Source: Patescibacteria group bacterium
GTDB lineage: Bacteria; Patescibacteriota; Minisyncoccia; Phycocordibacterales; JAACPR01
Length of the DNA: 64,000 bases
Reading direction: 5' to 3'
Assembly (NCBI GenBank): GCA_022711495.1
Contig: JAKLEX010000001.1
Location: 291,379 to 355,378 of the forward strand
A model generated the notes under the pieces. That model had not been told where the DNA came from. It saw nothing but the letters and a program-made list of their open reading frames with translations, and did no database searches. How positions within the stretch are numbered: position 1 is the stretch's first letter; each line of letters starts with the position of its first letter. A program made the translations under genes and the position numbers. Shown here one piece after another: positions 7,816-59,062 of the stretch.

Positions 7816-7896
7816 GTTCGGGCTTTCATAATTGATTACGGCGCCCCCTCTCTTCTCGCTTCTCCTTTCACTCAGATTTTGCTATATTATTGAGCA

Positions 7897-11015: not shown

Positions 11016-11031
11016 ATTATAGAAAATCAAA

Positions 11032-11298
11032 ATGAAGACAAATATCTGGTGGAGAGTTTCGTATAGTTTGTTCATAATCCTGTGCGCTTTCGTCGCTCCG
11101 TGGTGGATCAGCGTCGTTTTTTCAATATTGGGGTTGTTATACTTTGAGAAATTATACGAAGTTATGGTCGTCGGAATTGTTCTGGATTCTCTGTATGGTT
11201 TCAATGTTGAGATCTTTAGTTTTGGCTTTATTTTCACTCTATTTTTAATTATTGTCTTTTATCTGATTTCTAATCTTAGAAAAAATTTGCTGATCTAA
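11032..11298 (+). CDS. mreD: MreD-like small integral membrane protein
   Basis: 88 aa and very hydrophobic. It sits between mreC and PBP2. Confidence 0.55.
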   Translation: MKTNIWWRVSYSLFIILCAFVAPWWISVVFSILGLLYFEKLYEVMVVGIVLDSLYGFNVEIFSFGFIFTLFLIIVFYLISNLRKNLLI

Positions 11299-11299
11299 T

Positions 11300-19431: not shown

Positions 19432-20367
19432 GTGGACATGAACAAGGGGACAAAGTTGGCGATAGCGCTATTTGTCGGGGCCGTCTTTGGCGAAGCTGTC
19501 GGTTATTATCTTCTGGTCAGTACACTCGGCCTTTCCATGATCTGGATTTTGCCGACGACTCTGATCGGGATGCTCGCTGGCAGTTGCGCCGTCTTGGGCG
19601 TCGAACCGTTGGTCCTGATTATCTGCACGATCGGTCTCTGGCTGACAAGTCTGGAGCCCGGCCAAAAAATCCGTGCGTGGAAACAGGGCCTGATTAGCAG
19701 TTGGCGTGCCTTCCGCGACGATCATCCGTGGTGGAGAACTTTACGGACGATCTGCCTCATTCTGTATTGGGCATCGTGGATCTGGGCGTATTTCAAAGCC
19801 GCCATGTTTATGTGGCATGGAAGTCACAGCCTATTCTTGGCTCTTACTGTGCCGGTTGGCGTTGGTGCGTTTTTGTTCGTCTCATCTATATTGCTCGTTG
19901 AGCGATATGGTCTGGAAGAAGTCCTTTTTCAGAAAATGTTGGTCCGGCGCTCGCCAAAGAGGTTATTTCGGAGAGACAAGGTGGTGGATTTCGTGATAGA
20001 GGAGATAACATTCCTATTGGCGGCCAACCCGTTTTCGGTGGTGACCATTGATATCTTCCTCGGCGGGTTTTTTGTGGTGAAAACCACTGCTGTCTGGCTC
20101 ATCAACCTTTTCTGGAATATTCTGGAGACGGTCAATTCCAGTAACCTTGTAGTGATTGCGACCGGCGGCGCGATCGGCCTGATCGTCTCGCAAGTATGTG
20201 GATATCCTCCGTTGATCTCTTGTGTCGTCGGCGGAGTCGGCGGACTTCTCGTGAAGCTCGCAATCAACGCGATCCTGTTCGTGTTTGTCTTCATCGTTCT
20301 GATGATCATGAGTTGGTTACTTGGTTCTGATATTATCTGGGAAGCAACATCGTGCGATTCGGACTAA
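19432..20367 (+). CDS. polytopic integral membrane protein (about 8 TM), unknown function
   Basis: 311 aa and strongly hydrophobic. A strong RBS AAGAGGAGAAGG is present. The start is either the GTG at 19432 or the ATG at 19438. The segment is GC-richer than its surroundings. Confidence 0.5.
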   Translation: MDMNKGTKLAIALFVGAVFGEAVGYYLLVSTLGLSMIWILPTTLIGMLAGSCAVLGVEPLVLIICTIGLWLTSLEPGQKIRAWKQGLISSWRAFRDDHPWWRTLRTICLILYWASWIWAYFKAAMFMWHGSHSLFLALTVPVGVGAFLFVSSILLVERYGLEEVLFQKMLVRRSPKRLFRRDKVVDFVIEEITFLLAANPFSVVTIDIFLGGFFVVKTTAVWLINLFWNILETVNSSNLVVIATGGAIGLIVSQVCGYPPLISCVVGGVGGLLVKLAINAILFVFVFIVLMIMSWLLGSDIIWEATSCDSD

Positions 20368-20519: not shown

Positions 20520-21167
20520 ATGAACCTGTTGATAGCTGATATTGCCGCTTGGATGAAGGAGAAGGGGCTGATCGGTCTGCATTTTGATACCACGGTTGAA
20601 GACGGAGTTTATGTTTATCATGTTTACGTTCATGGTCGAGTTTCGGCCGTCAGGGGCGACGACTATCAGTCGAACATTGAAGCTGTTGTGTTTTGGCATA
20701 AACCCGGCCGGCCGTTAAACGCCGATCAGATTGCCTCTTCTTTGTCTCCCGGAACTCGTAAGAAGATTCTTGACGAGTTGGAAGAATTGCAAGCCGCGAA
20801 TCGTCTTGATGCGTGCGATCAAATCGCATACACGGAGGCCTTTGAGTTCAAACTGCAGGAGCGGGTCATGGACGATTATCGTGAAAAATGTATGGTCGTC
20901 GGTCAGCGCGACGAAGAAGCTCTTCACATGTTTTTTAGCCCGGCCCGAGTGGTCGCTGGGCTGACTGACAGGGAGGTGCGGCTCTGCATTCTAATGTCTT
21001 CTTTACGCGATCAGCAGAAAAGGCTTTTTCCTTTGATGAGGCCACCGATGTTGTCCGAGAAGTTACTAAGATTTCCGGATATTTCTTTGCCCAGAGGGGA
21101 GGCACTGAAGGAGGCGATCTACGATATCCTCCTGGATATTGCCGAAAGCCAAATTCTTCCTTTTTGA
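20520..21167 (+). CDS. hypothetical cytoplasmic protein (215 aa)
   Basis: A good RBS is present with its own promoter and terminator. No recognisable domain was found. It contains an R-x5-H stretch (RDEEALH), which is weak HEPN-like evidence only. Confidence 0.45.
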   Translation: MNLLIADIAAWMKEKGLIGLHFDTTVEDGVYVYHVYVHGRVSAVRGDDYQSNIEAVVFWHKPGRPLNADQIASSLSPGTRKKILDELEELQAANRLDACDQIAYTEAFEFKLQERVMDDYREKCMVVGQRDEEALHMFFSPARVVAGLTDREVRLCILMSSLRDQQKRLFPLMRPPMLSEKLLRFPDISLPRGEALKEAIYDILLDIAESQILPF

Positions 21168-27768: not shown

Positions 27769-28683
27769 ATGGCGAATCGGCACCTTTCACGATCAATAGT
27801 GTTGCAGTCTCTCTTCGAATGGGATTTTCGGGGAGATGCCAAATTTGATGTTGATGAAACTATTTTGCGCAATGCTACGGAATTTGCTCCGGGAATCAGC
27901 GACGCGCCCTTTATGAAGAAGTTGCTTGAAACAGTTCTGGCCAAAAAATCCGAGCTGGATAAAATTATTACCAAAGCCGCGCCCGATTGGCCCCTAGATA
28001 AAATCTCCATTGTTGATAGAAATATTTTGCGTATTGGTCTGGCCGAACTGCTTTTTGCTGACCGAGAAGAAGTCCCGTCTAAAGTCGCCATAAACGAAGC
28101 TATTGAATTGGCTAAAACTTTCGGCGGCGAATCTTCCAGTAAGTTTGTTAACGGCGTTTTAGGCGCAGTTTATAAAGAGCTGGGAGAGCCAGGTAAAGAC
28201 GAATCAAAATCCAAAAAGCGTCGCGATATACCTTTTGAACAGATGCCTGTTGAGAAAAAGGCCGGCGCGGTTATTTATTCTGTTCATGACGGAGGAATCT
28301 ATATTGCTTTGGTGCATGATGTTTTCGGCCACTGGACTTTATCAAAAGGTGGAATTGAGTCTGGTGAAACCGACGAGGTCGGGGCCGTTCGCGCCATTAA
28401 GCAAGAACTTGGTCTGGACATAGAAATCGTTGACAGAATCGGGGAGAACGAATACGTTGCCAATCATCCGGAAAAAGGACAGCACCGTAAGCAAGTTGTT
28501 TACTTTTTAGCCAAGTCCAAATTTGAAGAACTTAAATTGAGTCAGTCTGGCGGTCTTGATAACGCGCAGTGGTTTAAGCTGGCCGACATCCTTGACCTTA
28601 ATTTTTATGATGATATTCTGCCTCTAGTTACTAAGGCGTTGAAGAAATTAGCGGAAATAAATGTCCGAGTAACGACTACTTAA
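27769..28683 (+). CDS. nusB: NusB-NUDIX fusion protein (N-terminal NusB antitermination fold, C-terminal NUDIX hydrolase-like domain with degenerate Nudix box)
   Basis: The N-terminal 130 aa are NusB-like (SRSIVLQSLFEWDF...RNILRIGLAELLF). A lysine-rich linker follows. The C-terminus has GGIESGETDEVGAVRAIKQELGL, matching GX5EX7R.UX.EXGU with REUxEE replaced by RAIKQE. Confidence 0.6.
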   Translation: MANRHLSRSIVLQSLFEWDFRGDAKFDVDETILRNATEFAPGISDAPFMKKLLETVLAKKSELDKIITKAAPDWPLDKISIVDRNILRIGLAELLFADREEVPSKVAINEAIELAKTFGGESSSKFVNGVLGAVYKELGEPGKDESKSKKRRDIPFEQMPVEKKAGAVIYSVHDGGIYIALVHDVFGHWTLSKGGIESGETDEVGAVRAIKQELGLDIEIVDRIGENEYVANHPEKGQHRKQVVYFLAKSKFEELKLSQSGGLDNAQWFKLADILDLNFYDDILPLVTKALKKLAEINVRVTTT

Positions 28684-34656: not shown

Positions 34657-35298
34657 ATGAATTTCCATATAATCTCACTTTTTCCAAATTCCATGAGCTC
34701 TTATATTAAGGAGTCTATTATCGGTCGCGCCATAAAGGATAAAAAAATTAGAGTTAAATTTTATAACCCAAGAGATTTTACCAGGGACAAATGGCGCCGG
34801 ATTGATCAAAAGCCGTATGGCGGTGGACCGGGCATGGTTATTCAAGCCGAGCCGGTTATTCGCGCAATCTCCAAGGCCATTGCTCGAAAAAATAAATACA
34901 AAATTGTTTTTCTGTCTCCTGGCGGTAAGCAGTTTGATACTAAAACCGCTCGACAAATCGCCCAATCTATAAAAGATTTGGTAATCATCGCCGGCCGCTA
35001 TGAAGGGATCGATGAAAGGGTTAATAAAGTTTTTAAGACCGAGAAAATTTCCGTTGGTCCGTATGTTTTGACTGGCGGGGAATTGCCGGCCCTGATTTTG
35101 GTTGATTCAATTTCTCGCCAGATTGAGGGCGTTTTGGGCAACGATTTGTCATTAGAAGAACGGCGGATTTCTTCAAACAAAGTTTATACGCGTCCGGAGA
35201 TCTTCAAAATAAAAGATAAAAATTACCGTGTGCCAAAAGTTCTTCTAAGCGGTGACCATAAGAAAATCAACATGTGGAAAAACGCCGGTAACAAATAA
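34657..35298 (+). CDS. trmD: tRNA (guanine37-N1)-methyltransferase TrmD
   Basis: SPOUT knot motifs YGGGPGMV and IAGRYEGIDERV are present. Confidence 0.9.
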   Translation: MNFHIISLFPNSMSSYIKESIIGRAIKDKKIRVKFYNPRDFTRDKWRRIDQKPYGGGPGMVIQAEPVIRAISKAIARKNKYKIVFLSPGGKQFDTKTARQIAQSIKDLVIIAGRYEGIDERVNKVFKTEKISVGPYVLTGGELPALILVDSISRQIEGVLGNDLSLEERRISSNKVYTRPEIFKIKDKNYRVPKVLLSGDHKKINMWKNAGNK

Positions 35299-35371
35299 AG
35301 ACGCATTTTGCTCGTCGTGGTACAATATCCACATAGGTTTTTATAATTTAGTTCACAATATAATTATCCTC

Positions 35372-36640
35372 ATGTTTTTTTCTAGATCATTAAGACGAAA
35401 CACCTCAAAAGGTTTCACTCTCCTGGAAATGCTCTTGGTCATCGCCATCATCGCCATCTTAGCTGCTATCGTTATCGTGGCCATCAACCCAGCGCGGCAA
35501 CTAGCCCAAGCTCGAAATGCTCAAAGAGCTAGTGATCTCAATGCTATCCATAAAGCTGTCCAACAGTACTACATAGATAACCTGGAATACCCAGACGGTT
35601 TAGATAGTAGTCTGCAAGAAATCTGCAATACTGGCGGAGGAGAAGATTGTATTGATATTGAAGACGCTTTAGTACCAACTTATCTTTCTGCTCTACCAGA
35701 AAATCCAAATGGTGGTAATTACGAAATCGCTCTACAGACTGGCAACAAACTAGCTTTAGTTGCTCCTGGTTCAAAAGAACAAGGACTTGGCGGCATTGTC
35801 ATTGGAACTTCAACTTCGTTAGTTGAAGAAGAAGGTGGTGGAGGGGGAGAAGAATGTGATGTTACTGCTGCCGGATCCTATGACTCCGCTACTGATGGCG
35901 ATTACACAGTTTTAACTTTTGATGGGGCCGGCACGTTCACAGTTAACTCTGGTACCTGTGATGCTGATATTCTTGTTGTTGGCGGTGGAGGAGGAGGAGG
36001 GCAGAAACATTCCGGAGGTGGTGGAGGCGGCGGCGTTATAGAAGAAAGCGTATCTGGTTTATCTGGTGAAATAGGAATCTCTGTTGGTTCTGGTGGCGCA
36101 GGTGGGCCAGCTGGTGATCCTTATAATGCTGGAGAAAACGGCGGAGATAGCTCTTTTGGTGATGATTATATTGCAATTGGTGGCGGTGGAGGAGGGGGTT
36201 ATAGTACAGCAAATGAAGCCGGTGACGGTGGTTCTGGGGGAGGCGCCGGGCAGAATAATGATGATCCGCCAGGACTTGGTGAAGCTGGACAAGGTAATAA
36301 TGGAGGTGACGAGTCTAGCGGCCGAGGCGGAGGCGGTGGTGGGGCCGGCGCGGTTGGAGAGGACTCTGATGGCACTAACGGCGGAACCGGAGGTGATGGC
36401 ATTTCTTCTGATATAACAGGTGTCGCCACCTATTATGGTGGTGGCGGAGGTGGAGTTGGTCCATCCCAAGCCGCTGGCGGACAGGGAGGCGGTGGTTCTG
36501 GTGCAAATTACAGCGATGAAGGATCGTTTCCGGCGGAAGATGGAACGGATGGACTTGGTGGTGGCGGAGGTGGAGGTCAAGATGCCGCAGGCGGAGATGG
36601 CGGTGATGGTGTTGTTATAGTCCGATATATAGCCAGCTAG
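35372..36640 (+). CDS. type IV pilin-like protein with very large glycine/aspartate-rich low-complexity C-terminal domain
   Basis: A prepilin class III signal MFFSRSLRRNTSKG|FTLLEMLLVIAIIAILAAIVIVAINP is present. A pilin head domain follows (QQYYIDNLEYPDG). About 250 aa are made of runs such as GGGGGGG, GSGGAGG and GGDGGDG. Start chosen at the ATG at 35372 because the ORF's upstream part overlaps trmD. Confidence 0.65.
   Translation: MFFSRSLRRNTSKGFTLLEMLLVIAIIAILAAIVIVAINPARQLAQARNAQRASDLNAIHKAVQQYYIDNLEYPDGLDSSLQEICNTGGGEDCIDIEDALVPTYLSALPENPNGGNYEIALQTGNKLALVAPGSKEQGLGGIVIGTSTSLVEEEGGGGGEECDVTAAGSYDSATDGDYTVLTFDGAGTFTVNSGTCDADILVVGGGGGGGQKHSGGGGGGGVIEESVSGLSGEIGISVGSGGAGGPAGDPYNAGENGGDSSFGDDYIAIGGGGGGGYSTANEAGDGGSGGGAGQNNDDPPGLGEAGQGNNGGDESSGRGGGGGGAGAVGEDSDGTNGGTGGDGISSDITGVATYYGGGGGGVGPSQAAGGQGGGGSGANYSDEGSFPAEDGTDGLGGGGGGGQDAAGGDGGDGVVIVRYIAS
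35980..36600 (+). repeat. degenerate GGN-codon tandem repeats (low-complexity DNA encoding the Gly-rich tail)
   Basis: Reiterated ggtgg(a/t)gg(a/c)gg units occur throughout. Confidence 0.6.
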
Positions 36641-36885
36641 TTGATTTTAGTTAAAATTCACCGCCATTTTCTGTGGAAAACTCGTTGACGCGGGTTTACT
36701 TTTAGTTTATCCTATCTTTAACGCTAAAGGGGATTGAGTTCGGGCAGAAATTGCGGTTTAAATATTAAAAATAATAAAAGCTAGCGGATGCGGCTTTTGG
36801 AAAATTATAAAAGTTAATTAATCATAAGAGGCGAAACTCTGAAAGGGGAGAGTTCCGCCCAATTTTTGCGTCTGCATAATTAAAT

Positions 36886-39800
36886 ATGAAAAACACCAAG
36901 TTTGCTAAAGACGAAGCCAAAACTGTCGGCCAAAGAGAAAAAAAGTATTTCTCAAAGTATCGAAAACCTCCGATAGAATTACCTAATTTGTTTGAAGGTC
37001 AAATTGAATCTTTTAATTGGCTTATAAACGACGGCTTGAAAGAAGTTTTCAAGGAATTTTCAGAGATCTCTGATTATTCCGGGAAAAAATTTGATCTTAA
37101 ATTAGGCGAACTGATTTTTGAGAAACCGAAATTGACTAGCCGCGAAGCCCGATTCAATCATCTAACTTACGAAGCTCCTCTTAAAGTTCGAGCCACCCTT
37201 GTAAACAAAGCCCTTAATACGACCAAAGAACAAGACATCTTCCTGTCCGAGTTTCCAATAATGACTCGCCACGGAACTTTTATCATCAATGGCGTTGAAA
37301 GAGTTATCGTTCCACAACTAGCCCGTTCTTACGGGATTTTATTTACAACAAATTTGATCCGCGGCCGAATTTTATTCGGTGCCAAAATAATTCCATCCAG
37401 AGGTGCTTGGATAGAATTTGAGACCGATGCCGATAATGTTGTCTATGTCCGAATCGATCGAAACCGCAAGTTCCCAGTCACGACCCTTTTACGAGTTTTA
37501 GGCACGGCGACAGATGAAGCCATATTAAAATTATTTAAAGGTCATGACTTTGTTGTTGAGGCGATTAAGAAAACTTTGGCCAAAGATTCGGTCAAAGAGC
37601 TAGAACACGCATATCTTGATATTTATAAAAGATTGCGCGATGGCGATTTGGCGACCTTGGAAAATGCCAGAGAATTTGTTGATTCTATCTTAGACGAAGA
37701 TCGTTATGACTTATCAGAAGTTGGTCGTTTCAAGTTCAACAACCGTTTTGGTCTACCGACTGATAAAAAAGCTCTGCAAAAGAGAGTTATTGACAAAGAC
37801 GACTTAGCCATCATCATCTCTCATATTGTTGAGTTAAATCATACGCCAGATGCCATAGAAGACGATATTGATCACCTTGGTTCTCGTCGAGTTAGATTTG
37901 TTGGCGAACTGCTTCAACAGAAAGTTCGAACGGGTCTAGCTCAAATGCGTCGAAACATCCAAAATCGAATGTCTACCATGGACACCTCGACGACCTTGCC
38001 GGCCAATTTTATCACCCCGAGACCGTTGCAAGCTCGAATTAAGGAATTTTTCACCACCAGTCAGCTGTCTCAATTCATGCAGCAAGAAAATATCTTGACG
38101 GAGATTGAACACCTAAGAACTGTTTCTGCTCTTGGACCCGGAGGTTTGACTAGAGAGAGAGCCGGACTTGAAGTTAGAGACGTTCATCCTTCTCATTACG
38201 GCAGAGTTTGTCCGATTCAAACTCCTGAAGGACCAAACATCGGTTTGATTTTGAGACTTTCTTGTTACGCTAGAACCAACAAATATGGAATGATTGAGAC
38301 GCCTTATTTGAAGGTTGAGGACGGAAAAGTTACAAACGAAATCGTTTATCTCAACGCTCACGAAGAGGAAAAATATTCTATCGCTCATGCCGCGTTGAAA
38401 TTAGATGAAAACGGACATTTTACCGACAAATATGTCAATGCCCGGGTTCATGGCGTTCCAAATGTCGTTAAAAATACTGAAATAAATTTCATGGACGTTG
38501 CTCCTTACCAAGCGTTTTCTGTCGCCACATCCATGGTGCCATTTTTGGATCACGATGATGCCAACCGTGCTCTGATGGCCTCAAACATGCAGAAACAAGC
38601 TGTTCCGCTGTTAAAAACAGAAGCTCCACTCGTGGCGACTGGTATTGAAGAAGACTCGCTTAAGTATTCAAATCGCGTTATTCGCGCCGAAGAGGCGGGA
38701 GTCGTTGAGGCGGTTGACGGCAGAAGAATTATCGTTAACTCTGGTCGAGAGAAAAAAGAATATGAATTGGAAAACCTTCGCCGAACAAATAGTTTTACGG
38801 CTTTCGGACATAAGCCGATTGTTAATGTCGGAGACAAAGTGAAAAAAGGCGGGCTTTTGGCTGATAGTTCAACCAGTGACCACGGACAAGTTGCGTTTGG
38901 TAAAAACTTGCTTGTGGCTTTTATGTCCTGGTCCGGTTCAAACTACGAAGATGCCATTATCATTTCGCAGAAGTTAGTAAAAGACGATACCTTAACTTCT
39001 ATTCATTTAGAAGAAGTCGTCGTTAATGTTCGGGATACACGGCTTGGTCCGGAAGAAACGACATCTGATATTCCAAATGTCAGCGACATCAAATTAAAAA
39101 ATCTTGATGAGGAAGGAATCATCCGTGTTGGCGCTGAGGTTCGTCCCGGAGATATTCTCGTTGGAAAAATCACGCCAAAAAGCGAAACCCAACTTACGCC
39201 GGAAGAAAGATTACTCAGATCAATTTTCGGAGAAAAGTCTCGTGATGTTAAGGATTCATCAAAAAGAGCCGAGGGCGGACTTTGTGGTCGTGTCGTCGGC
39301 GTTAAAATTTTTACTAGGGAAAAGGGAGATAAACTTGATTCTGGAATTATCAAGAGAATTCATGTTGAGGTTGCTCAACTCCGAGCAATCCAGGTTGGTG
39401 ACAAATTAGCCGGGCGTCACGGTAACAAGGGCGTGATTTCCAGGATTCTACCGGTTGAGGACATGCCTTACACGGAAGACGGAACAGCGGTTGATATAGT
39501 TTTAACTCCTCTAGGTGTACCGAGTCGTATGAACCTTGGCCAGATTTTGGAGTTACACCTTGGTCTAGCGGCAAATTCACTTAATTATCAAGCTATCTGT
39601 CCGCCATTCTCTGGGGCAACTGTTGAAGAAATCCGCTCGGAATTAGCTCAGGCCGGTTTCAACACAAATGGCAAAATGCCTTTGTACGATGGCCGAACAG
39701 GTGAAAAATTTGAACAAGACATCGCTGTTGGTTATATGTACATGCTTAAACTTCACCACATGGTTGAAGATAAAATCCACATGCGCTCTATTGGGCCTTA

Positions 39801-40113
39801 CTCATTAATTACCCAACAACCTTTGGGTGGTAAAGCGCAAAACGGTGGACAGAGATTCGGAGAAATGGAAGTCTGGGCACTGCTTGGTCACGGCGCTGCT
39901 CATACCCTTCGCGAAGTTTTGACTTACAAGTCGGACGACATTGTCGGACGATCGGCGGCTTTTGACGCTATTGTTAAAGGACAACCAATAACTCAAACCA
40001 ATGTTCCGGCCTCGTTTAATGTTTTAGTTAATAATATGCGAGGTTTGGGGCTAGATGTTGACATTAAATACGCAGACAAAAAGGCAGAAGATGATGAGAA
40101 CAATAAAAAATAA
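36886..40113 (+). CDS. rpoB: DNA-directed RNA polymerase subunit beta (compact form)
   Basis: 1075 aa. Conserved Rpb2 blocks are present: GDKLAGRHGNKGVIS, NMQKQAVP and ARFNHLTYEAPL. Confidence 0.95.
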   Translation: MKNTKFAKDEAKTVGQREKKYFSKYRKPPIELPNLFEGQIESFNWLINDGLKEVFKEFSEISDYSGKKFDLKLGELIFEKPKLTSREARFNHLTYEAPLKVRATLVNKALNTTKEQDIFLSEFPIMTRHGTFIINGVERVIVPQLARSYGILFTTNLIRGRILFGAKIIPSRGAWIEFETDADNVVYVRIDRNRKFPVTTLLRVLGTATDEAILKLFKGHDFVVEAIKKTLAKDSVKELEHAYLDIYKRLRDGDLATLENAREFVDSILDEDRYDLSEVGRFKFNNRFGLPTDKKALQKRVIDKDDLAIIISHIVELNHTPDAIEDDIDHLGSRRVRFVGELLQQKVRTGLAQMRRNIQNRMSTMDTSTTLPANFITPRPLQARIKEFFTTSQLSQFMQQENILTEIEHLRTVSALGPGGLTRERAGLEVRDVHPSHYGRVCPIQTPEGPNIGLILRLSCYARTNKYGMIETPYLKVEDGKVTNEIVYLNAHEEEKYSIAHAALKLDENGHFTDKYVNARVHGVPNVVKNTEINFMDVAPYQAFSVATSMVPFLDHDDANRALMASNMQKQAVPLLKTEAPLVATGIEEDSLKYSNRVIRAEEAGVVEAVDGRRIIVNSGREKKEYELENLRRTNSFTAFGHKPIVNVGDKVKKGGLLADSSTSDHGQVAFGKNLLVAFMSWSGSNYEDAIIISQKLVKDDTLTSIHLEEVVVNVRDTRLGPEETTSDIPNVSDIKLKNLDEEGIIRVGAEVRPGDILVGKITPKSETQLTPEERLLRSIFGEKSRDVKDSSKRAEGGLCGRVVGVKIFTREKGDKLDSGIIKRIHVEVAQLRAIQVGDKLAGRHGNKGVISRILPVEDMPYTEDGTAVDIVLTPLGVPSRMNLGQILELHLGLAANSLNYQAICPPFSGATVEEIRSELAQAGFNTNGKMPLYDGRTGEKFEQDIAVGYMYMLKLHHMVEDKIHMRSIGPYSLITQQPLGGKAQNGGQRFGEMEVWALLGHGAAHTLREVLTYKSDDIVGRSAAFDAIVKGQPITQTNVPASFNVLVNNMRGLGLDVDIKYADKKAEDDENNKK

Positions 40114-45555: not shown

Positions 45556-46746
45556 ATGTCTAAAAAAAGAGCGGTATCAAAAAAGCAGCGAGTAGTAAAA
45601 AGAAAAAAATCTAAGAGAGTTTTAAATAAATCTAAAAAGAACTCCGCATCAGCCGCAAAGAAAACTTCTCCTATTTCTAAAAAAGATAAGGAAGTGCGCA
45701 TCGCCGGTTTGTTGGATAAGGGCAAGGAGAGGGGGTTTGTTACTTACGATGAGATTCTAAAACATTTTCCAACTATAGAAACCGACGTTCCCTTACTGAC
45801 TGCCTTGTACGAAAAATTTGAGACAGCCGGCATTGATATTTTAGAAGGGGGCGGCTTTTTAGAGATGAAAGAAGAGGATGAAACTAAAAAATACATGGCT
45901 GGGAAATCTCCCTCGCAGTTTGATTCAATTCAGATGTATTTGAAAGAAATCGGACAATTTCCGCTCATTTTGGCCCATGAAGAAAAAGAATTGGCCAAAA
46001 GAATTGAAACCGGAGATAATGATGCTAAGACGCTTCTAGCCCGAGCCAACCTTCGTCTGGTCGTTTCTATTGCTAAAAAATACGTCGGCCGAAGTCCTGA
46101 TTTAACTCTGCTTGATTTGATTCAAGAGGGGAATATCGGCTTATTTAAGGCCGTGGATAAGTTTGATTGGACTAAAGGCTACAAGTTTTCTACATATGCT
46201 ACCTGGTGGATTCGTCAAGCCATTACCAGGGCCCTGGCCGATCAGTCCAGAACGATCCGCGTGCCGGTGCACATGGTTGAAACTATAGCCAAATATAAAC
46301 AAGTTTTTCGTAGACTGTCGCAAGACCTTGGTCGCGAACCTTTGCCAAGCGAAATTTCCATAGAAATGAGCTTAGAGTTGGAGAAAATTTACACGATTGA
46401 AAAGATAGACCAAAGCACCGTCTCACTGGAAAATCCCGTCGGTGACGAAGGCGATGAAAAATCAACCCTGGGAGATTTCATTCCAGATGAAAATATTTCT
46501 TCTCCGGATCAGGATTCGTCTCATAGAATTCTGCGAGATCAGGTTTTAGAAATTCTCAACGATTTATCCGAAAAAGAAAGAAAAATTTTAGAATTGCGGC
46601 ACGGTCTTATAGACGGCGTACAACACACCCTTGAAGAAGTCGGCAAAAAGTTCGGCGTTACTCGTGAAAGAATTCGACAGATTGAATCAAAGGCGCACGA
46701 AAAGATCCGACAGCACAGCGCTTCTGACAAACTTAAAAATTATTGA
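45556..46746 (+). CDS. rpoD: RNA polymerase sigma factor RpoD (sigma70 family)
   Basis: Region 2 [36 protein letters not shown]. Region 4 [20 protein letters not shown] lysine-rich N-terminus is present. dnaG-rpoD arrangement. Confidence 0.9.
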
Positions 46747-47453
46747 GGAGTCTTATTTAAAAGCTGACTGACAATTTCCTTTAGATAGGAAAAATCTTGT
46801 GCGCCGATCATTTCTACTTGATCTCCACTTTGAGTGACAATAATAGTATATGGGGTTCCAAAATCAGAATCGTATTTGTATATTATTAACCCATCTTCAA
46901 TTGATTTTTTAATCTTATCTCTAAATTTTTGGTCGGCCAGACATTCGTCGTACTTTTCTTTCTCAATGGATAGGCTCATTGCGACATCTTCTAGGTCATC
47001 TTGAGTAAAAGATGCGGGCAGCTCCTGATTTACTTTTGAGACAAACTGCCAAAATTTTGGTTCTCCGCCGATGTCTGCGACACATTCGGCGGCAACGGCT
47101 GAAATCGTAGAGAGGGAGTTGTTATCTTGGAGCGCGTCTTCTCTAGGGAAATGCCTGTACACCCAGGCTAAATCTCCGTTTTTTCCGAATTCTTCTACTA
47201 ATTTTTCCATTGTTGAATGAAATTCCCGGCAGAATGAGCATTTAAAATCGGCGTATTCAATAAAAATAACTTCGGCTTCGGGATTACCCAGAATATGATC
47301 GTCATCTGTTACCGGACTTATGGCATATCTAATTTCCTCATCGCTGATTTTTTCCGGAAGAGGCGCGTTTTTTTGACCCAAAATTATTCCGCTGGCAACA
47401 ACAACTCCAATTAATATTAAAATTATTCCAAAAAATGTAGCGTTTCTGTTCAT
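46740..47453 (-). CDS. DsbA-like thiol:disulfide oxidoreductase with N-terminal TM anchor
   Basis: Thioredoxin fold with CSFC active site ([15 protein letters not shown]). An N-terminal hydrophobic segment is present. Confidence 0.75.
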
Positions 47454-50161: not shown

Positions 50162-50851
50162 CTAATCTTCCAGCCGGATCGGGGCGCTTTTAATAATTTC
50201 AATAATCTTATCCTCATCGTCAGTGATTTCATACAAAGATAGGTCGCTTTCGCTTATCTTTTTATTCGCAAGCAAGTTTTTCCTTAAAAAGGCATCAAAA
50301 TTGTTCCAAAAATATGAACCGACGAGAATGACGGGAGCCGATGGAATTTTTTTGGTCTGCACCAATGTTAATATCTCAAACAACTCATCCAGAGTTCCAA
50401 ATCCACCGGGGAAGAAAACATAGGCCTCAGCAGAAAAGGATAGACAGACTTTTCGACTGAAAAAGTAATTAAATTCAAGGGCTTCTGTCAGAAATGAATT
50501 GGTTTTTTGCTCCTTAGGCAATTTAATGTTTAATCCTAGAGACCTTCCTCCGGCAGTGAAAGCGCCGCGGTTAGCCGCCTCCATAATACCCACTGAACCA
50601 CCGGTTAATACCGAATAGCCCAATTCTCGGCAGATTCGTCCGGCCAATTTTTCCGCCGTAATATAATCTTGATCAACAGAGGGAGTTCTAGCTGATCCGA
50701 AAAAAGTTACGCTTCGCGGATGATTTCTTATGAAGTCAAAACCGGCCTTAAATTCTTTCTCTATTTTATCAATCCGTTGATTAATATCCTGGCTAATTTC
50801 TTTAAAATTAATCAATTTATATTCTGGTTTTTTGGGCGTTTTATTCATCAT
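50162..50851 (-). CDS. LOG-family protein (TIGR00730; cytokinin riboside 5'-monophosphate phosphoribohydrolase-like)
   Basis: GGSVGIMEAANRGA and FPGGFGTLDELFE carry the PGGxGTxxE motif. Confidence 0.8.
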   Translation of the reverse strand: MMNKTPKKPEYKLINFKEISQDINQRIDKIEKEFKAGFDFIRNHPRSVTFFGSARTPSVDQDYITAEKLAGRICRELGYSVLTGGSVGIMEAANRGAFTAGGRSLGLNIKLPKEQKTNSFLTEALEFNYFFSRKVCLSFSAEAYVFFPGGFGTLDELFEILTLVQTKKIPSAPVILVGSYFWNNFDAFLRKNLLANKKISESDLSLYEITDDEDKIIEIIKSAPIRLED

Positions 50852-50950
50852 ATGAACAATATTCTAAACCAGAGAAGCGTCTTTGCAAAATCGCCATTCT
50901 CTTATATGCTTTCTTTTGTGTCGGCTATTGATTTCAAAATTATCAAAAAA

Positions 50951-52150
50951 ATGAAAGAGCCTAAGGCGTTGGGACGAGCCGGGGTTTTAAAAACCGCTCA
51001 CGGAAAAATTCAGACTCCGGCATTTGTGGCGGTAGGAACAAAGGCAACAATCAAATCTTTGACCCCAGAACAGGTCAAAGACCTTGGCGTAGAGGTGATT
51101 TTGGCCAATACTTATCATCTCCATTTACAACCGGGTGAAGATCGTATCGCTTGCGCTGGCGGACTCAACAAAATAATGGGCTGGAATGGTCCGACCATGA
51201 CAGACTCCGGCGGTTTTCAAGTTTTTTCTCTGGGGGCTGCTTTTGGTAAAAACATCACGAAAATAACCAAAAATCACGCCGAAGAAATTTTGCTTGAAGA
51301 TTTTACCGAGACAACTAGAAAAAACCGTGGCCCAATCGTGGAAAATTTTAAACCAGCCAAGGTTAAAGAGGATGGTGTTTATTTTAGATCTCATATTGAC
51401 GGTTCGGCCCATTATTTTTCTCCCGAGAAATCAATTGAGATACAAAATAAAATTGGGGCGGATATTATTTTCGCTTTTGATGAATGCACTTCGCCCAACG
51501 AATCAATTCATTATCAGAGAGAGTCTTTGGATCGAACTCATCGGTGGGCAAAAAAATCTTTGAAATATCATCGCGCTCAACCGATTTCAAAAAAGCAGGC
51601 GATTTTTGGTATCGTTCAGGGCGGTCGGCACGAGGAATTGCGTAAGAAGAGCGCCGAGGTTATTTCCAAAATGGATTTTGATGGTTTTGGTATCGGTGGC
51701 AGCTTTCAAAAAGTCGATATGTCAAACGCCGTCCGCTGGGTCAATGAGATTTTACCGGAAGAAAAACCAAGACATTTACTTGGTATTGGCGAACCGGAAG
51801 ATCTCTTCATGGCCGTGGAAAACGGTTGCGATTTATTTGATTGCGTGGCGCCGACCAGAATCGCTCGAACGGGGCAGGTCTATACTTCTTCAGGTAAGAT
51901 TAATTTGAATAACTCAGCCTTTCAGGAAGATTTATCGCCGATTGAAAAGACTTGCGGATGTTACACTTGCAAAAAATACACCCGGGCTTATTTGGCGCAT
52001 CTCTTCCGGGCTGACGAAATTTTAGCCGCGACCCTGGCTTCTATTCATAATTTGTATTTTATCGTCAACTTGGTCAAAAAGATGAGAAGGGCTATTTTGA
52101 ATAACACTTTCAGCAAACTTAAAAAAGAATTTCTGAAGAAATATAATTAG
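50951..52150 (+). CDS. tgt: queuine tRNA-ribosyltransferase (tRNA-guanine transglycosylase)
   Basis: AFVAVGTKATIK...LANTYHL...DSGGFQV and the zinc site CGCYTC...H. Start set at the MKEPKALGRAG codon because the upstream part of the ORF overlaps the LOG gene. Confidence 0.85.
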   Translation: MKEPKALGRAGVLKTAHGKIQTPAFVAVGTKATIKSLTPEQVKDLGVEVILANTYHLHLQPGEDRIACAGGLNKIMGWNGPTMTDSGGFQVFSLGAAFGKNITKITKNHAEEILLEDFTETTRKNRGPIVENFKPAKVKEDGVYFRSHIDGSAHYFSPEKSIEIQNKIGADIIFAFDECTSPNESIHYQRESLDRTHRWAKKSLKYHRAQPISKKQAIFGIVQGGRHEELRKKSAEVISKMDFDGFGIGGSFQKVDMSNAVRWVNEILPEEKPRHLLGIGEPEDLFMAVENGCDLFDCVAPTRIARTGQVYTSSGKINLNNSAFQEDLSPIEKTCGCYTCKKYTRAYLAHLFRADEILAATLASIHNLYFIVNLVKKMRRAILNNTFSKLKKEFLKKYN

Positions 52151-54001: not shown

Positions 54002-54544
54002 ATGAATCAATTAAGAAAAGAGAGAGGTTTCACTTTATTGGAAATGCTTTTGGTTATAGCCATCATCGCCATCTTGGCAGCCATCGTCATCGTGGCTATC
54101 AACCCGGCTAAACAACTGGGCGATGCTAACAACGCTCAAAGACAATCAGATGTTTTGGCAATCTTAAACGCCGTTCACCAGTATTCCATTGACAATGAGG
54201 GCGATATCAGTGGTTTAGGCATTGTGAGCATTGCTGCCGCAGCTGATGAATGCGAAACCAGCGCCGATGCCACCAGCTATATTTGTCTCTACGATGCCGA
54301 TTGTGTTGACGGAACTGATTTAGATGATTTAATCGGTGACGATGACGAAGCGAGTTATTTGACTGATATTCCGATGGACCCTCTAGCCACTTCATCAGAT
54401 GAATTTGATACTTTCGGGTTTGATGACGAAGACCATAATGGATACATTATTCTACAAGATGACGATAACGGTCGTATTACTGTCTGTGCCCCACTTACAG
54501 AAAATCAGGATATAGGTGAAGAAATTATTACTGTAACTAGATAA
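54002..54544 (+). CDS. pilA: type IV pilin (candidate major pilin)
   Basis: MNQLRKERG|FTLLEMLLVIAIIAILAAIVIVAINP is a class III prepilin signal with Glu5. It is the first gene of the pilus operon. The C-terminus is acidic. Confidence 0.8.
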   Translation: MNQLRKERGFTLLEMLLVIAIIAILAAIVIVAINPAKQLGDANNAQRQSDVLAILNAVHQYSIDNEGDISGLGIVSIAAAADECETSADATSYICLYDADCVDGTDLDDLIGDDDEASYLTDIPMDPLATSSDEFDTFGFDDEDHNGYIILQDDDNGRITVCAPLTENQDIGEEIITVTR

Positions 54545-54618
54545 AGACAGAGTATTATTGGTTGAACGAGCGACGAACTTCTGCTGTGGGCAGATTGGGA
54601 ACCTTAACAAAGAACTTA

Positions 54619-56295
54619 ATGTCAGAGGAACAAATCAAACAAGCGTTAATAAACGGCAAAAAAATCACGCCGGATAATTTTGAAAAAGCTGCCGCGGCCG
54701 CCCAGAAAGAAAATATCTCTCTGGAAAAGGCACTGATAAAAGGTGGCTTTCTGACCGAACAAATTCTTGGCGCCACGTTGGCTGAACTAATCGGGTTTCC
54801 TTACATTGATCTTGATCACGAAAGCATCCAAGACAGTTATCTAACTTATCTGCCTGAAGAAGTCGCTACTGCCCAACAAGCCTTGATTTTCAACGAATCC
54901 TCTGATTCATTCAAAATCGCCACGACAAATCCCAATAACTTTAAATTGATTAAGGATTTGGAAAAAGTCGTCGGTAAAAAAGCCGAAGTTTTCTTTGCCA
55001 CCAAGACAGCCATTGAAAAATTTCTCCTATTCTACAAAAATAACTTGCCACAAGATTTCCGGGAGTTCGTTGAAGAATTCAAAAAAAGTGGAGACGAAAA
55101 CATCATCGTAAAAATGGTTGATCGCCTAGTTGACTACGCTTATGAAAATAAGGCCTCGGACATTCACATTGAGCCGAGCACCAAAGACGTTGGAGTTCGG
55201 GTTCGTGTTGATGGTTTGCTTCGTCGCGTCGCATCTTATCCGCTTGATCTCCATCCTAAAATAGTCTTTCTCATCAAAATCTTGTCTCACTTGAAAACTG
55301 ATGAACACGGTATGACACAGGACGGACGATTCGATCGCGTCTCAAAAAACGAAAAGTTTGATATTCGTGTTTCAATTTTGCCGGTAACCAACGGCGAAAA
55401 TATCGTTATGCGTATTCTGGCGGAAAAATCTCGTCGCCTGTCTCTTGAAGAACTTGGTCTGATGCCGGAAGAGCTAAGAAAATTAAAAGAGATGATTGCT
55501 CGACCTTACGGAATGATTATCGCCACTGGAGCAACTGGTTCCGGAAAGACCACAACTTTGTACGCAATTTTGCAATTAGTTGATAAGAAAAAGTTAAATG
55601 TCGTCACTATTGAGGATCCGGTGGAATACGCCATGGAAGGCATTCAACAAATTCAGGTTAACGAAAAGAAAAACTTAACTTTCGCCAATGGTTTGCGTTC
55701 CATCGTCAGACAGGACCCGGACATGATCATGGTCGGAGAAATTCGTGACGCCGAGACAGCCTCCATCGCCATAAACGCCGCTCTTACCGGCCACGTCCTG
55801 TTTTCCACTCTCCACGCCAACGATACCGCCACGGTTTTCTCTCGTCTGACCGAATTGGAAATTGATCAAACTCTTATCGCCACGTCTCTAAGTTTGATTA
55901 TCGCCCAAAGATTGGTTCGTCGAGTTTGTCCGTATTGTAAAGTAGCTCACAAACCAACATCGGCGGAGATGGCTTATCTTAAAGCCAATAAGCATGTTGA
56001 GGCGATTATCAAAGAAAGCCCTGACGGCAAAAAACGGAATCTTGATGATATAAATTTCTACGAGGGCACGGGTTGTTCAATGTGCGGTAATACCGGCTTT
56101 TTAGGTCGCGTTGGTATTTTTGAAGTCATGATGCTCGACGATGAAATAAGGTCATTGGTTGTCAAAAACTCTCTAGCCCAAGATATCAAAAAATTGTCAA
56201 TTCAAAAGGGGATGAAGCCCATGGAATATTGGGAGGCTTACCATTTGATAAACGGTACGACGACTCTTAATGAATTATTAAATCCAATTGCATAA
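54619..56295 (+). CDS. pilB: type IV pilus assembly ATPase PilB/GspE family
   Basis: Walker A GATGSGKTT. Asp box. His box. The C-terminal tetracysteine CPYC...CSMCG is present. The start could alternatively be the TTG at 54562. Confidence 0.85.
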   Translation: MSEEQIKQALINGKKITPDNFEKAAAAAQKENISLEKALIKGGFLTEQILGATLAELIGFPYIDLDHESIQDSYLTYLPEEVATAQQALIFNESSDSFKIATTNPNNFKLIKDLEKVVGKKAEVFFATKTAIEKFLLFYKNNLPQDFREFVEEFKKSGDENIIVKMVDRLVDYAYENKASDIHIEPSTKDVGVRVRVDGLLRRVASYPLDLHPKIVFLIKILSHLKTDEHGMTQDGRFDRVSKNEKFDIRVSILPVTNGENIVMRILAEKSRRLSLEELGLMPEELRKLKEMIARPYGMIIATGATGSGKTTTLYAILQLVDKKKLNVVTIEDPVEYAMEGIQQIQVNEKKNLTFANGLRSIVRQDPDMIMVGEIRDAETASIAINAALTGHVLFSTLHANDTATVFSRLTELEIDQTLIATSLSLIIAQRLVRRVCPYCKVAHKPTSAEMAYLKANKHVEAIIKESPDGKKRNLDDINFYEGTGCSMCGNTGFLGRVGIFEVMMLDDEIRSLVVKNSLAQDIKKLSIQKGMKPMEYWEAYHLINGTTTLNELLNPIA

Positions 56296-56302
56296 TTTTA
56301 TG

Positions 56303-57367
56303 TCATCAAAATTTTTATCTTTTCAACAAAATGCTTCTCAACGAGATCAAATAAATTTTGCCAGAGATTTGGCTATTCTTTTACGCAGCGGAGTAACTCT
56401 AAATGAAGCTATTCGGCTTTTGCAATCGCAAGCTAAATCGAGCGCCATGAAAAAGTTGTTAAGCGAGGCCATTGAGAATGTCAGCCGGGGAACGACTTTA
56501 TCGGTTACTTTGCAAGAATCTAGCGTCAGATTAAGAAGCGTCTTTATCAGTATGGTACACGCCGGCGAGATCAGCGGTACCCTAGTCTCAAACCTTTTGT
56601 TTTTGGCTGATTGGTTGGAAAGAAACTTGCAATTGAAGCAAGAAGTAAAATCGGTAACTTTGTATCCAAAGATTGTTTTCAGCGCGGCCATTTTACTGGG
56701 CGCCGGATTAGCGATTTTCATTCTGCCAAGATTGATACCGGTTTTTCAGGGCATGAAGATTGCTTTGCCGCTCATAACTCGGATGGTTTTGGCCACGGCA
56801 GTTTTTGTTCGGTCGTATTCAATCTGGATTATTTTGGGAATTCTAGTCTTTATAGTTGTCTTTACGGCTCTATCCAGAATTACGCTGACTCGCCGCTGGT
56901 TACAAAAATTTTATTTAAAAATCCCGTTTTTTGGAGAACTTATTCGGGCTTATGAATTGGCCTTATATTCTCAATTGATGCACGTTTTATTGAAGAGCGG
57001 TCTAACTATAAATGAATCTTTTGAAATCGCCAGCACGGAAAGTTCCAGCGTTCCATATCAAGATTCATTTATCATAATCAAAGAAAGATTGATTAAGGGC
57101 GTCAGTTTGTCCGATTCAATCGCTGATTTTCCTAAATTATATCCACCGAATTTTATCAGCATTATCGCCGTCGGAGAAAAAACCGGTACAATTGAAGGCT
57201 CTTTTGAAAGTCTTTCCGCTTTTTACAACAGGGAAATTAACACTAAGACAAAAAACTTACCGACAATTTTGGAGCCGATTCTTTTGGTTGGCATTGGACT
57301 TGTTGTCGGTATTGTAGCTTTGTCAATTATCTTGCCGATCTACACTTTGTCGGGAAGTCTTAGATAA
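56303..57367 (+). CDS. pilC: type IV pilus inner-membrane platform protein PilC/GspF family
   Basis: Two GspF repeats. Three transmembrane segments. The ORF is 359 aa; the chosen start is the MSSKFLSF codon at 56303, which gives about 354 aa. Confidence 0.8.
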   Translation, partial: SSKFLSFQQNASQRDQINFARDLAILLRSGVTLNEAIRLLQSQAKSSAMKKLLSEAIENVSRGTTLSVTLQESSVRLRSVFISMVHAGEISGTLVSNLLFLADWLERNLQLKQEVKSVTLYPKIVFSAAILLGAGLAIFILPRLIPVFQGMKIALPLITRMVLATAVFVRSYSIWIILGILVFIVVFTALSRITLTRRWLQKFYLKIPFFGELIRAYELALYSQLMHVLLKSGLTINESFEIASTESSSVPYQDSFIIIKERLIKGVSLSDSIADFPKLYPPNFISIIAVGEKTGTIEGSFESLSAFYNREINTKTKNLPTILEPILLVGIGLVVGIVALSIILPIYTLSGSLR

Positions 57368-57378
57368 ATAAGCCGCAA

Positions 57379-57855
57379 ATGAAATCTTATGGATTCACAC
57401 TAATAGAAATCTTAATTACCATTGGCATTGTGCTGGTAATTGCCGCATTAGCTTTGCCTATATCCATTGACTTCTACAACAATCAAATAACCAGAAGCGC
57501 TACCGATGAAATTTTTTCGGCCCTCAAAAAAGCCCAGGCTTTTTCTCTTTACAGGCGAGACGACAGTTCTTATGGAGTGGCCTTTGATTCGGGCGAAGAC
57601 GTCTATGTGATATTTGACGGTGATTACAACGATGTCCCGGCAGATTATGACGAAGTTTACGACTTACAGAGTATATCTGTCAGTTTTGATCCGGAAGCCG
57701 ACCCGGTAAATGAGATTTCTTTTGAAAAAGGGACGGGATTACCGAACGAAGGATCAATCACAACAATTACTCTTACCAAAGGCGCCGTTGAGCAATTCAT
57801 ATCAGTCTGCGAATCCGGTCTTGTAGAGTTGGGCGAAAATTGCGACGAAATTTAA
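57379..57855 (+). CDS. prepilin-type minor pilin / pseudopilin
   Basis: MKSYG|FTLIEILITIGIVLVIAALA signal with Glu5. Confidence 0.7.
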   Translation: MKSYGFTLIEILITIGIVLVIAALALPISIDFYNNQITRSATDEIFSALKKAQAFSLYRRDDSSYGVAFDSGEDVYVIFDGDYNDVPADYDEVYDLQSISVSFDPEADPVNEISFEKGTGLPNEGSITTITLTKGAVEQFISVCESGLVELGENCDEI

Positions 57856-57858
57856 ATC

Positions 57859-58341
57859 ATGAAATTCTTAAATGAAAAAAATAAAACTGGCGATGGAGGA
57901 TTCAGTCTGCTGGAAGTCATCTTATCTATTGCCGTATTTACCATCGGAATCGTGGGCATTGGCTTGTTCATGATAGACATTATGACCACGGCCGAAAGAG
58001 CTAGAAACTTAGACCAAGGAATTTTGCTTGCCGAGGAGGGATTAGAGGCGGTTAAACTCATTCGGGACGAAGATTTTGACGAAATTGCGGAAGGAGCATA
58101 TGGGCTATTATTGTCCGAAGATGATACCTGGACATTGGATCCCGGAAATCCGGACGTCACCGATCTGGGAAAAAATTTCACCAGAACGATTATTATCACC
58201 ACTTCGGAGGAATACACGGAAGAACCAGTGAGTGCCACGACTTCCGTTATGGTCATAGAAAGCCAGGTTTCTTGGCCAATCCGAGATGCTACGATTACCA
58301 TAAGTCTGTTTACTTTCCTCACCAATTGGTATCGTGAATGA
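57859..58341 (+). CDS. prepilin-type minor pilin
   Basis: GDGG|FSLLEVILSIAVFTIGIV signal with Glu5. Confidence 0.65.
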   Translation: MKFLNEKNKTGDGGFSLLEVILSIAVFTIGIVGIGLFMIDIMTTAERARNLDQGILLAEEGLEAVKLIRDEDFDEIAEGAYGLLLSEDDTWTLDPGNPDVTDLGKNFTRTIIITTSEEYTEEPVSATTSVMVIESQVSWPIRDATITISLFTFLTNWYRE

Positions 58342-58350
58342 TTTGTTATA

Positions 58351-58602
58351 ATGAGCAAAATGCCGACTGAAAAAAAATTACAAAAAGGTTTCACTCTTCT
58401 GGAATTTTTAATCTATTTCGCCATTACTTTAATAATGTTGGGCGTCATTACGCAAGTCTCGCTTAATATTTTGGACGGCAAAGAAAAAATTCGGGCTTAC
58501 GAGGAAGTCAGTCGTAGCGGCCGAAGTTCGTTAAACGCCATGATTGAAGCCATTTCCGAAGCCGACGAGGTTCTCGGAACTTCCGGAGAAGAACCAGAAT
58601 AA
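58351..58602 (+). CDS. prepilin-type minor pilin (small)
   Basis: KG|FTLLEFLIYFAITLIML signal with Glu5. 83 aa. Confidence 0.65.
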   Translation: MSKMPTEKKLQKGFTLLEFLIYFAITLIMLGVITQVSLNILDGKEKIRAYEEVSRSGRSSLNAMIEAISEADEVLGTSGEEPE

Positions 58603-58606
58603 ATTT

Positions 58607-59020
58607 ATGTTTCTATATTTTTCAAACAAAAGAAATCGGGGATTCGTCGCTTTGACGGCGGTTTTGTTGTTAAGTGCCGTTATTCTTTTTATCATCACCA
58701 GTCTTTCCATGCAGGTTCTGGATGAGGCGGAAGTCAGTTTGGCTCATGAGCAATCAAATAAGGCAAATTATTTGGCAGAAGCCTGCGCTGAATATGTGCT
58801 TCTGAAACTTTCCAATGATTCTAGTTATGACGTTGACGACGAACTTACTTTGGATGATGAGACGTGTTCTTACGTCATTGATGGTGAATACCCAGATAAA
58901 ATTATTCGGGTTACCAGCGTCGTTGGAGATCATTCTTACACCGCCGAAATGGAAATAGAAATATCAACCACGACTCCGTCGGTCACCATTGAATCTTTTA
59001 ATCGTAATGCGGATTTTTAG
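58607..59020 (+). CDS. PilX-like minor pilin (prepilin-like N-terminus lacking Glu5)
   Basis: MFLYFSNKRNRG|FVALTAVLLLSAVILFI. Start at the ATG at 58607; the longer ORF version overlaps the previous gene. Confidence 0.55.
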   Translation: MFLYFSNKRNRGFVALTAVLLLSAVILFIITSLSMQVLDEAEVSLAHEQSNKANYLAEACAEYVLLKLSNDSSYDVDDELTLDDETCSYVIDGEYPDKIIRVTSVVGDHSYTAEMEIEISTTTPSVTIESFNRNADF

Positions 59021-59062
59021 CTTCCTTCACTGCTTGAGCTTTGTTATAATGATTTGAAATAA

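Follow-up and report, generated by a model that had tools for sequence, protein, structure and literature searches.

A 64-kb stretch of contig JAKLEX010000001.1 from a Patescibacteria group bacterium, called the window below, carries the gene for a type IV pilin-like protein within an array of housekeeping genes. The gene order is RNase III, SMC, RNase R (on the minus strand), S16, KhpA, TrmD, the pilin, RpoB, RpoC, DnaG and RpoD. Both neighbours of the pilin gene were identified by Pfam, as expected from the original prediction, which had been made from the nucleotide sequence without database searches and had placed the gene between trmD and rpoB. The open reading frame (ORF) has 422 codons, from an ATG at 35372 to a TAG at 36638-36640. 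A GTG start at 35252 was rejected in favour of this ATG because the N-termini of homologues begin at the equivalent position. The encoded protein is probably a modular type IV pilin, composed of a leader and carrier pilin, a flexible linker and a folded glycine-rich module (Gly_rich_2) that would be displayed on the pilus; this assignment draws on sequence, a structure model and analogy with known proteins.

The RpoB of the window is 78-90% identical to its best database matches, and all named ones belong to Paceibacterota or Parcubacteria. Therefore, the organism is a candidate phyla radiation (CPR) bacterium, a possibility that had been raised at the outset. Mis-assembly or a collapsed repeat had also been raised as a possible source of the glycine-rich region. 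This was rejected because the same architecture, Pfam N_methyl plus Gly_rich_2, is shared by many independent assemblies; at least 43 of the best 120 homologues have it, with similar lengths.

Table 1. Coordinates of the pilin gene, its flanks and the pilus gene cluster in the window.
Feature	Position	Strand	Description
trmD	34657..35298	+	left flank of the slot; Pfam tRNA_m1G_MT, E=1.6e-39
Class III (prepilin) leader peptide	35372..35413	+	residues 1-14, MFFSRSLRRNTSKG, ends in Gly-1
Mature carrier pilin module	35414..35806	+	residues 15-145; hydrophobic alpha1 helix, small GspG/PilA-like globular head, Cys85/Cys92
Acidic poly-Gly linker	35807..35854	+	residues 146-161, TSLVEEEGGGGGEE...; similarity to carrier-pilin paralogues with other modules ends here
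Gly_rich_2 domain (PF21722)	35855..36637	+	residues 162-422 (261 residues), predicted fold; about 13 glycine-rich motifs; ends in conserved strand GVVIVRY
Conserved rpoB upstream region	36670..36885	+	promoter-like TTGAC box, leader stem-loop, then T-run; right boundary of pilin-gene insertion
rpoB	36886-40113		right neighbour; Pfam
180-aa pilin	54002..54544	+	head of pilus cluster, probable major pilin; alpha1N identical to the target
PilB-type ATPase (T2SSE)	54562-56295	+	Pfam
PilC platform (T2SSF)	56288-57367	+	Pfam
Pilin-like genes	57379, 57859, 58360, 58608	+	N_methyl, motif scan and sequence
PilM (PilM_2)	59063-60415	+	Pfam

The N-terminus of the protein consists of MFFSRSLRRNTSKG followed by FTLLEMLLVIAIIAILAAIVIVAINP, with Gly at -1, Phe at +1 and Glu at +5, such that the mature protein would start with FTLLE. 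Pfam N_methyl (PF07963) matches at 32.6 bits against a cut-off of 21.2, and the NCBIfam model TIGR02532 (IV_pilin_GFxxxE) matches at 30.9 against a cut-off of 16.3. Both scores agree with the textbook class III leader and Glu5 described earlier and, together with the PF21722 match given below, with the view of the protein as type IV pilin-like with a large extra C-terminal part. As in type IV pilins generally, about 20 hydrophobic residues form an extended alpha1 helix, after which comes an alpha-beta globular head. The N-terminal part of the AlphaFold2 model has EpsG, PilJ and PilA1 as structural matches, and Foldseek gives the same top three. In this model, the predicted local distance difference test score (pLDDT) falls below 50 only in the leader (residues 1-10) and in the linker (residues 146-157). 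In an alignment of 58 homologues that share the N_methyl plus Gly_rich_2 architecture, the cysteine pair of the head (Cys85/Cys92) is kept in 55. A second cysteine pair lies at the start of the C-terminal domain, and a DsbA-like gene is found at 46740-47453. The two pairs and the DsbA-like gene are consistent with an extracytoplasmic location.

The glycine-rich region, residues 171-422, contains 38% Gly and 9.5% Asp. The stretches first singled out in it, GGGGGGGQKHSGGGGGGG (204-221), GGDGGDGVV (407-415) and the VIVRYIAS end, are all present; the Gly runs span 3-7 residues and none exceeds 7, where 6-9 had been stated. The region matches PF21722 over residues 185-419 with 80.9 bits against a gathering threshold of 24.3 (E=1.8e-22), covering model positions 4-225 of 226. 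Across the 58 homologues, 10 Gly positions never vary, and dozens reach a conservation of 90% or more. Also conserved are the entry strands (...TFT...LVV) and the terminal strand (GxGVVIVRY), and indels are confined to the stretches between the glycine motifs, giving domain lengths of 240-332 residues. The AlphaFold2 model, computed from the same alignment, has a mean pLDDT of 88.7, and nearly all of residues 160-422 exceed 90. Residues 162-422 are predicted to form a tumour necrosis factor (TNF)-like beta-sandwich, from which the conserved glycine-rich strands would project in a side-by-side packing, with variable loop tips as caps. In the target, the approximately 13 motifs combine a conserved stem with variable tips, the pattern found in the fibre of cyanophage Pam3, and the family profile matches this fibre by sequence among PDB entries (E ~1e-3). 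The structure entries of Pam3 and of mycobacteriophage Bxb1 were released in 2022 and 2024 and thus probably postdate the data on which AlphaFold2 was trained; memorisation should therefore not account for the agreement. The domain holds 35 acidic residues (D/E) and three basic ones (K/R); DNA binding by the module was rejected because of this charge.

The Gly_rich_2 family is very large: its cluster representatives at E≤1e-3 number 11,239, giant multicopy proteins among them. In the metagenome representative library, P0121 (6043 aa), P0122 (7335 aa) and P0132 (5009 aa) each carry up to 10 Gly_rich_2 stretches. The domain is very common in phage proteins: Foldseek returned 225 viral structure matches at E≤1e-3, and the PHROG family phrog_2295 was matched at E=2.8e-42. 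The phage domains compared were those of cyanophage Pam3 gp24 (7YPX/7YFW), mycobacteriophage Bxb1 gp33 and gp29 (9D93) and Salmonella phage S16 gp38 (6F45), the last of which was absent among the listed matches. In Pam3 gp24, a TNF-like sandwich bears 12 glycine-rich motifs arranged as a four-layer lattice, in which the stem is conserved and the distal tips are hypervariable; this glycine-rich domain is the distal receptor-recognition part, and receptor binding was proposed for the tips (PMC9608196). Phage glycine-rich domains have been classed as bundles of polyproline II helices (PMC13243192). The phage proteins differ from the present one in having N-terminal parts that dock to the fibre or baseplate, in forming trimers and in often requiring chaperones, whereas here the domain is borne by a pilin and nothing suggests a trimer. 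A phage tail-fibre receptor-binding protein was considered and rejected, given the pilin N-terminus, the trmD and rpoB neighbours and the lack of phage genes nearby. Resemblance to the extracellular glycine-rich ligand-binding domain of ALK and LTK (TNF-like plus polyglycine-II; 7LRZ, 7NX3, 7LIR) is only distant. ALK differs in being a eukaryotic receptor that binds a cytokine ligand, and it is placed in a different Pfam family, Gly_rich (PF12810).

The arrangement of the protein is that of a modular pilin. A pilin module (15-145) and a short linker (146-157) are followed by a domain (PF21722, 185-419) that also occurs outside pili, in phage proteins and in giant multidomain proteins. The same carrier is found with other domains. 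Twelve of the best 120 homologues combine the same carrier head (52-68% identity) with LamG, and others bear PF22434, PF09603 or PF07603. Residues 1-175 of P0002, which carries Gly_rich_2, are 86% identical to those of P0013, which carries LamG, and the two proteins are unrelated past this point. Between the target and P0001, the homologue closest to it, identity is 85-86% in the carrier and linker and falls abruptly to 52% in the domain, or to 30% there when Gly-Gly matches are removed. From these alignments, the Gly_rich_2 module appears to be fast-evolving or swapped while the carrier is conserved, and the carrier and linker appear to form a socket for interchangeable effector modules. When genome contigs were searched with a profile of the family alignment, the matches listed were mostly Patescibacteria pilin heads, and one locus among them (L052, query residues 7-420) covered both modules; the genome of the window was not in this listing, which serves here as support for the taxonomic distribution. 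On contig L070 of one relative, LamG and Gly_rich_2 carrier-pilin paralogues (7270-8568 and 10001-11494) are separated only by an alanine racemase gene. A single 744-kb contig appears to hold at least six carrier-pilin paralogues (P0004, P0023, P0032, P0042, P0057 and P0061).

The space between trmD and rpoB was compared in six contigs of relatives, which were read via their RpoB orthologues; L073 and L074 share RpoB and an identical spacer, leaving five distinct relatives. In L072 (RpoB 85% identical), the gene order is the same and a 390-aa pilin with a LamG module lies between trmD and rpoB. Its carrier is 65% identical to that of the target over residues 13-151, BLASTP similarity ends at residue 151, and its linker, similar to that of the target, is an acidic poly-Gly-Cys stretch. 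In L073/L074 (RpoB 90%) and in L075, L076 and L077 (78-79%), trmD is followed directly by rpoB, with no pilin gene. Thus, four of five distinct relatives (five of six contigs) have nothing in the slot (35299-36669 in the window), which is occupied by a LamG pilin in the fifth and by the Gly_rich_2 pilin here. The 245 nt 3' of the pilin gene in the window align with the entire 216-nt spacer of the pilin-less genomes. Synteny was not found with the closest Gly_rich_2 pilins, since P0001, P0002 and P0004 lie in unrelated housekeeping contexts. The pilin gene is an accessory, mobile or recombining element. Since the slot varies among relatives, the position beside the RNA polymerase genes has no functional meaning.

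The region upstream of rpoB is conserved in six Paceibacterota sequences, in which a TTGAC box is followed by a TAGTTTAT-like box and by the boxes GGGGATTGAGTT and AATGCAG. In the relatives, this region lies at 7760-8000 in L072, 5776-5991 in L073, 3721-4000 in L075, 2226-2470 in L076 and 3791-4000 in L077. A stem-loop occurs 20-55 nt before the ATG with a T-run after it; the stems differ in sequence and fold in all six (-8.7 to -28.8 kcal/mol). RNAalifold on a MAFFT alignment of the leaders did not recover this hairpin, whereas folding of each sequence separately did, and the leader gave no match in Rfam. The element may be an rpoB leader attenuator or a terminator.

The separation of the pilin gene from the pilus operon, which had also been noted, was confirmed: a cluster of pilus genes is found at 54002-60415, 17 kb downstream. 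The window therefore contains cognate PilB/PilC machinery of the kind expected for a type IV pilin. The target has 75% identity to the operon pilin over residues 7-70, and the alpha1N segment, 28 residues long, is the same in both, which argues for the same peptidase and assembly platform. The 180-aa pilin at the head of the cluster has an unusually acidic, Asp-rich globular part (...DDLIGDDDEASYL...FGFDDEDHNGYIILQDDDNG...) and only alpha1 in common with the target. An 80-aa mini-pilin is encoded at 58360-58602 and is directly followed, at 58608-59020, by a 137-aa pilin-like protein that starts with MFLYFSNKRNRG and then FVALT and lacks Glu+5, as do GspK/PilX-type subunits; an overlapping ORF with a TTG start had given the impression of a frameshift there. 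Elsewhere, a 311-aa protein that looks multi-membrane-spanning is encoded at 19432-20367 and a 215-aa protein at 20520-21167, both with no Pfam match at E≤1e-5. For the former, a divergent prepilin peptidase is conceivable.

The claim that such a protein is unlike known minor pilins was not supported. Modular pilins with grafted C-terminal domains are well established and widespread (PMC8179133), including in CPR bacteria (PMC11623550); Raynaud et al. (2021) counted more than 1,200 modular pilins in 264 architectures, many of them from CPR (PMC8179133). The pilins PilB and PilC of Streptococcus sanguinis, which carry a von Willebrand factor A domain and a lectin domain respectively, share with the present protein the leader, the small pilin module, the short linker and a bulky domain at the C-terminus that is not peculiar to pili (PMC8179133; PMC9934059). 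In both systems a carrier presents an effector, and LamG (PF13385) is found on the same carrier in relatives of the window gene. The differences are that the effector here is Gly_rich_2, which is outside the modules discussed by Raynaud et al. (PMC8179133), that the organism is a CPR bacterium, that the gene lies outside the pilus operon and that the protein is known from sequence. In Saccharibacteria TM7x, the minor pilins PilX1 and PilX2 contain a beta-jelly-roll and a beta-propeller respectively, and deletion of PilX2 lowers host binding (PMC11623550). These are likewise CPR pilins with additional C-terminal domains, and PilX2 is needed for efficient host binding, which supports an adhesive role of the window pilin. 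They differ in having other C-terminal folds, in being encoded inside pilus loci and in lacking a canonical PilD signal, whereas the window pilin has a canonical signal and lies in a housekeeping array.

On the proposed model, a prepilin peptidase would remove the 14-residue leader after Gly14, and the PilB/PilC/PilM machinery at 54-60 kb would insert the carrier into a pilus, most likely as a subunit of low abundance at the tip. The pilus would then present the glycine-rich module to the outside, where the variable acidic loop tips could bind a surface ligand. For a CPR episymbiont, this ligand would plausibly be a component of the host cell envelope. The original prediction had suggested a pilus-tip adhesin, and a pilus-displayed adhesin is the most reasonable function by analogy with the Pam3-type phage domains, with S. 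sanguinis PilB/PilC and with TM7x PilX2.

Two other accounts of the glycine-rich region, both related to suggestions in the original prediction, are hard to reconcile with the data. According to one, the C-terminal 250 residues are an intrinsically disordered Gly/Asp spacer of low complexity, or a 'brush', whose only effect would be to extend the pilus surface or to hydrate it. The high Gly content and strong acidity fit such a spacer, as does the lack of regular secondary structure in the DSSP assignment of the Gly runs, and phmmer with the single domain sequence found no match among PDB sequences. The low-complexity tail is instead a conserved, defined domain that is predicted to fold, as indicated by PF21722, the alignment, the pLDDT values and the fold match, and a disordered spacer is very improbable. 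According to the other, the GGN tracts are simple-sequence repeats that slip in replication and make the protein phase- or length-variable. GGN codons are numerous and raise the local GC to as much as 0.61 over the pilin gene; in addition, a (GGA)4 is present in the gene and a T7 run lies in codons 2-4. The Gly codons are mixed, however (GGT 44, GGA 36, GGC 27 and GGG 8), and the (GGA)4, at 12 nt, is the longest perfect triplet repeat in the gene and the sole one in the 64 kb with four units or more. Slippage at this repeat would stay in frame and therefore be unable to switch the gene off. Tandem Repeats Finder reported only two matches in the gene, each of 20 nt and 2.2 copies, while T7 runs are ordinary, the window having 55 A/T runs of at least 7, and the indels among homologues lie between Gly motifs and not within them. 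The long perfect homopolymer or short tandem repeat, in or upstream of the ORF, that marks a phase-variable contingency gene is absent here, and the notion of slippage-prone, reiterated codons is scarcely tenable.

The manner of display leaves more room for other explanations. The class III signal and head could serve mainly for secretion or anchoring, with the module shown on a short pseudopilus or at the membrane, as in the archaeal 'bindosome' or the pseudopilins of type II secretion systems, and not in long pili. Such an arrangement is unlikely: the alpha1N segment is identical to that of the operon pilin, the full carrier head is present, and the modular pilins of S. sanguinis and TM7x work in true pili. 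Alternatively, the protein could be a major or abundant subunit, its module decorating the sides of the entire filament (a protective or anti-phage coat would be one example), and not a tip adhesin. The shared alpha1N and the flexible linker would permit this, and Raynaud et al. allow a location in the filament body for a modular pilin with a flexible linker (PMC8179133). The gene is nevertheless missing from most of the distinct syntenic relatives, the usual position of the major pilin, beside pilB, is held by the 180-aa pilin, and steric demands would be high if every subunit bore the 261-aa module; this alternative is quite improbable. Several points also weigh against the pilus-tip adhesin itself. 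No prepilin peptidase (Peptidase_A24) gene was found in the 64-kb window. The phage homologues are trimeric and often chaperone-dependent, and neither property is evident for the pilin. The module is highly acidic, and the known ligands, OmpC for gp38 and cytokines for ALK, give no guide to the class of ligand. Finally, an alpha1N identical to that of the operon pilin, with a flexible linker, may allow display along the filament rather than at the tip.

Three further observations concern other parts of the window. At 27769-28683, a single 304-aa ORF joins NusB (residues 7-136) to a NUDIX hydrolase domain (179-279), which is an unusual fusion. Two full-length MreB paralogues, MreC and a PBP2-type transpeptidase are encoded at 4414-5439, 9179-10261, 10233-11015 and 11300-12994 in this small-genome CPR organism. 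The queuine tRNA-ribosyltransferase at 50720-52150 is 476 aa long, with its best TGT match at residues 211-475 and a second matched stretch, a layout that suggests an insertion or an N-terminal extension.

Both building blocks of the protein and its design principle are already known, and a Gly_rich_2 pilin is not new in kind. Among the papers searched, none described Gly_rich_2 on pilins and none dealt with glycine-rich pilins in Patescibacteria. What is new, in a modest but concrete way, is the exchange of modules at an orthologous slot. A wider scheme is conceivable, although doubtful, in which Paceibacterota and other CPR bacteria would possess a cassette system for pilus adhesins. The carrier and acidic poly-Gly linker would act as a recombination socket, modules (phage-type glycine-rich, LamG and others) would be shuffled, and genes would enter and leave hot spots such as the trmD-rpoB spacer. 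The glycine-rich module, which phage tail-fibre tips also have, would set the host cells to which the episymbiont can attach, as a direct counterpart of phage host-range determinants, possibly being exchanged with phages.

Type IV pili are so far the best experimentally supported attachment device in host recognition by CPR/Patescibacteria. If the carrier pilins do present interchangeable modules, among them the domain used by phages to recognise receptors, partner specificity could be predicted by reading which modules a genome encodes, and the variable trmD-rpoB slot would be an easy strain-level marker. A further caution is that stretches very rich in glycine, in the surface proteins of bacteria, can be folded domains and ought to be left unmasked in low-complexity filtering.
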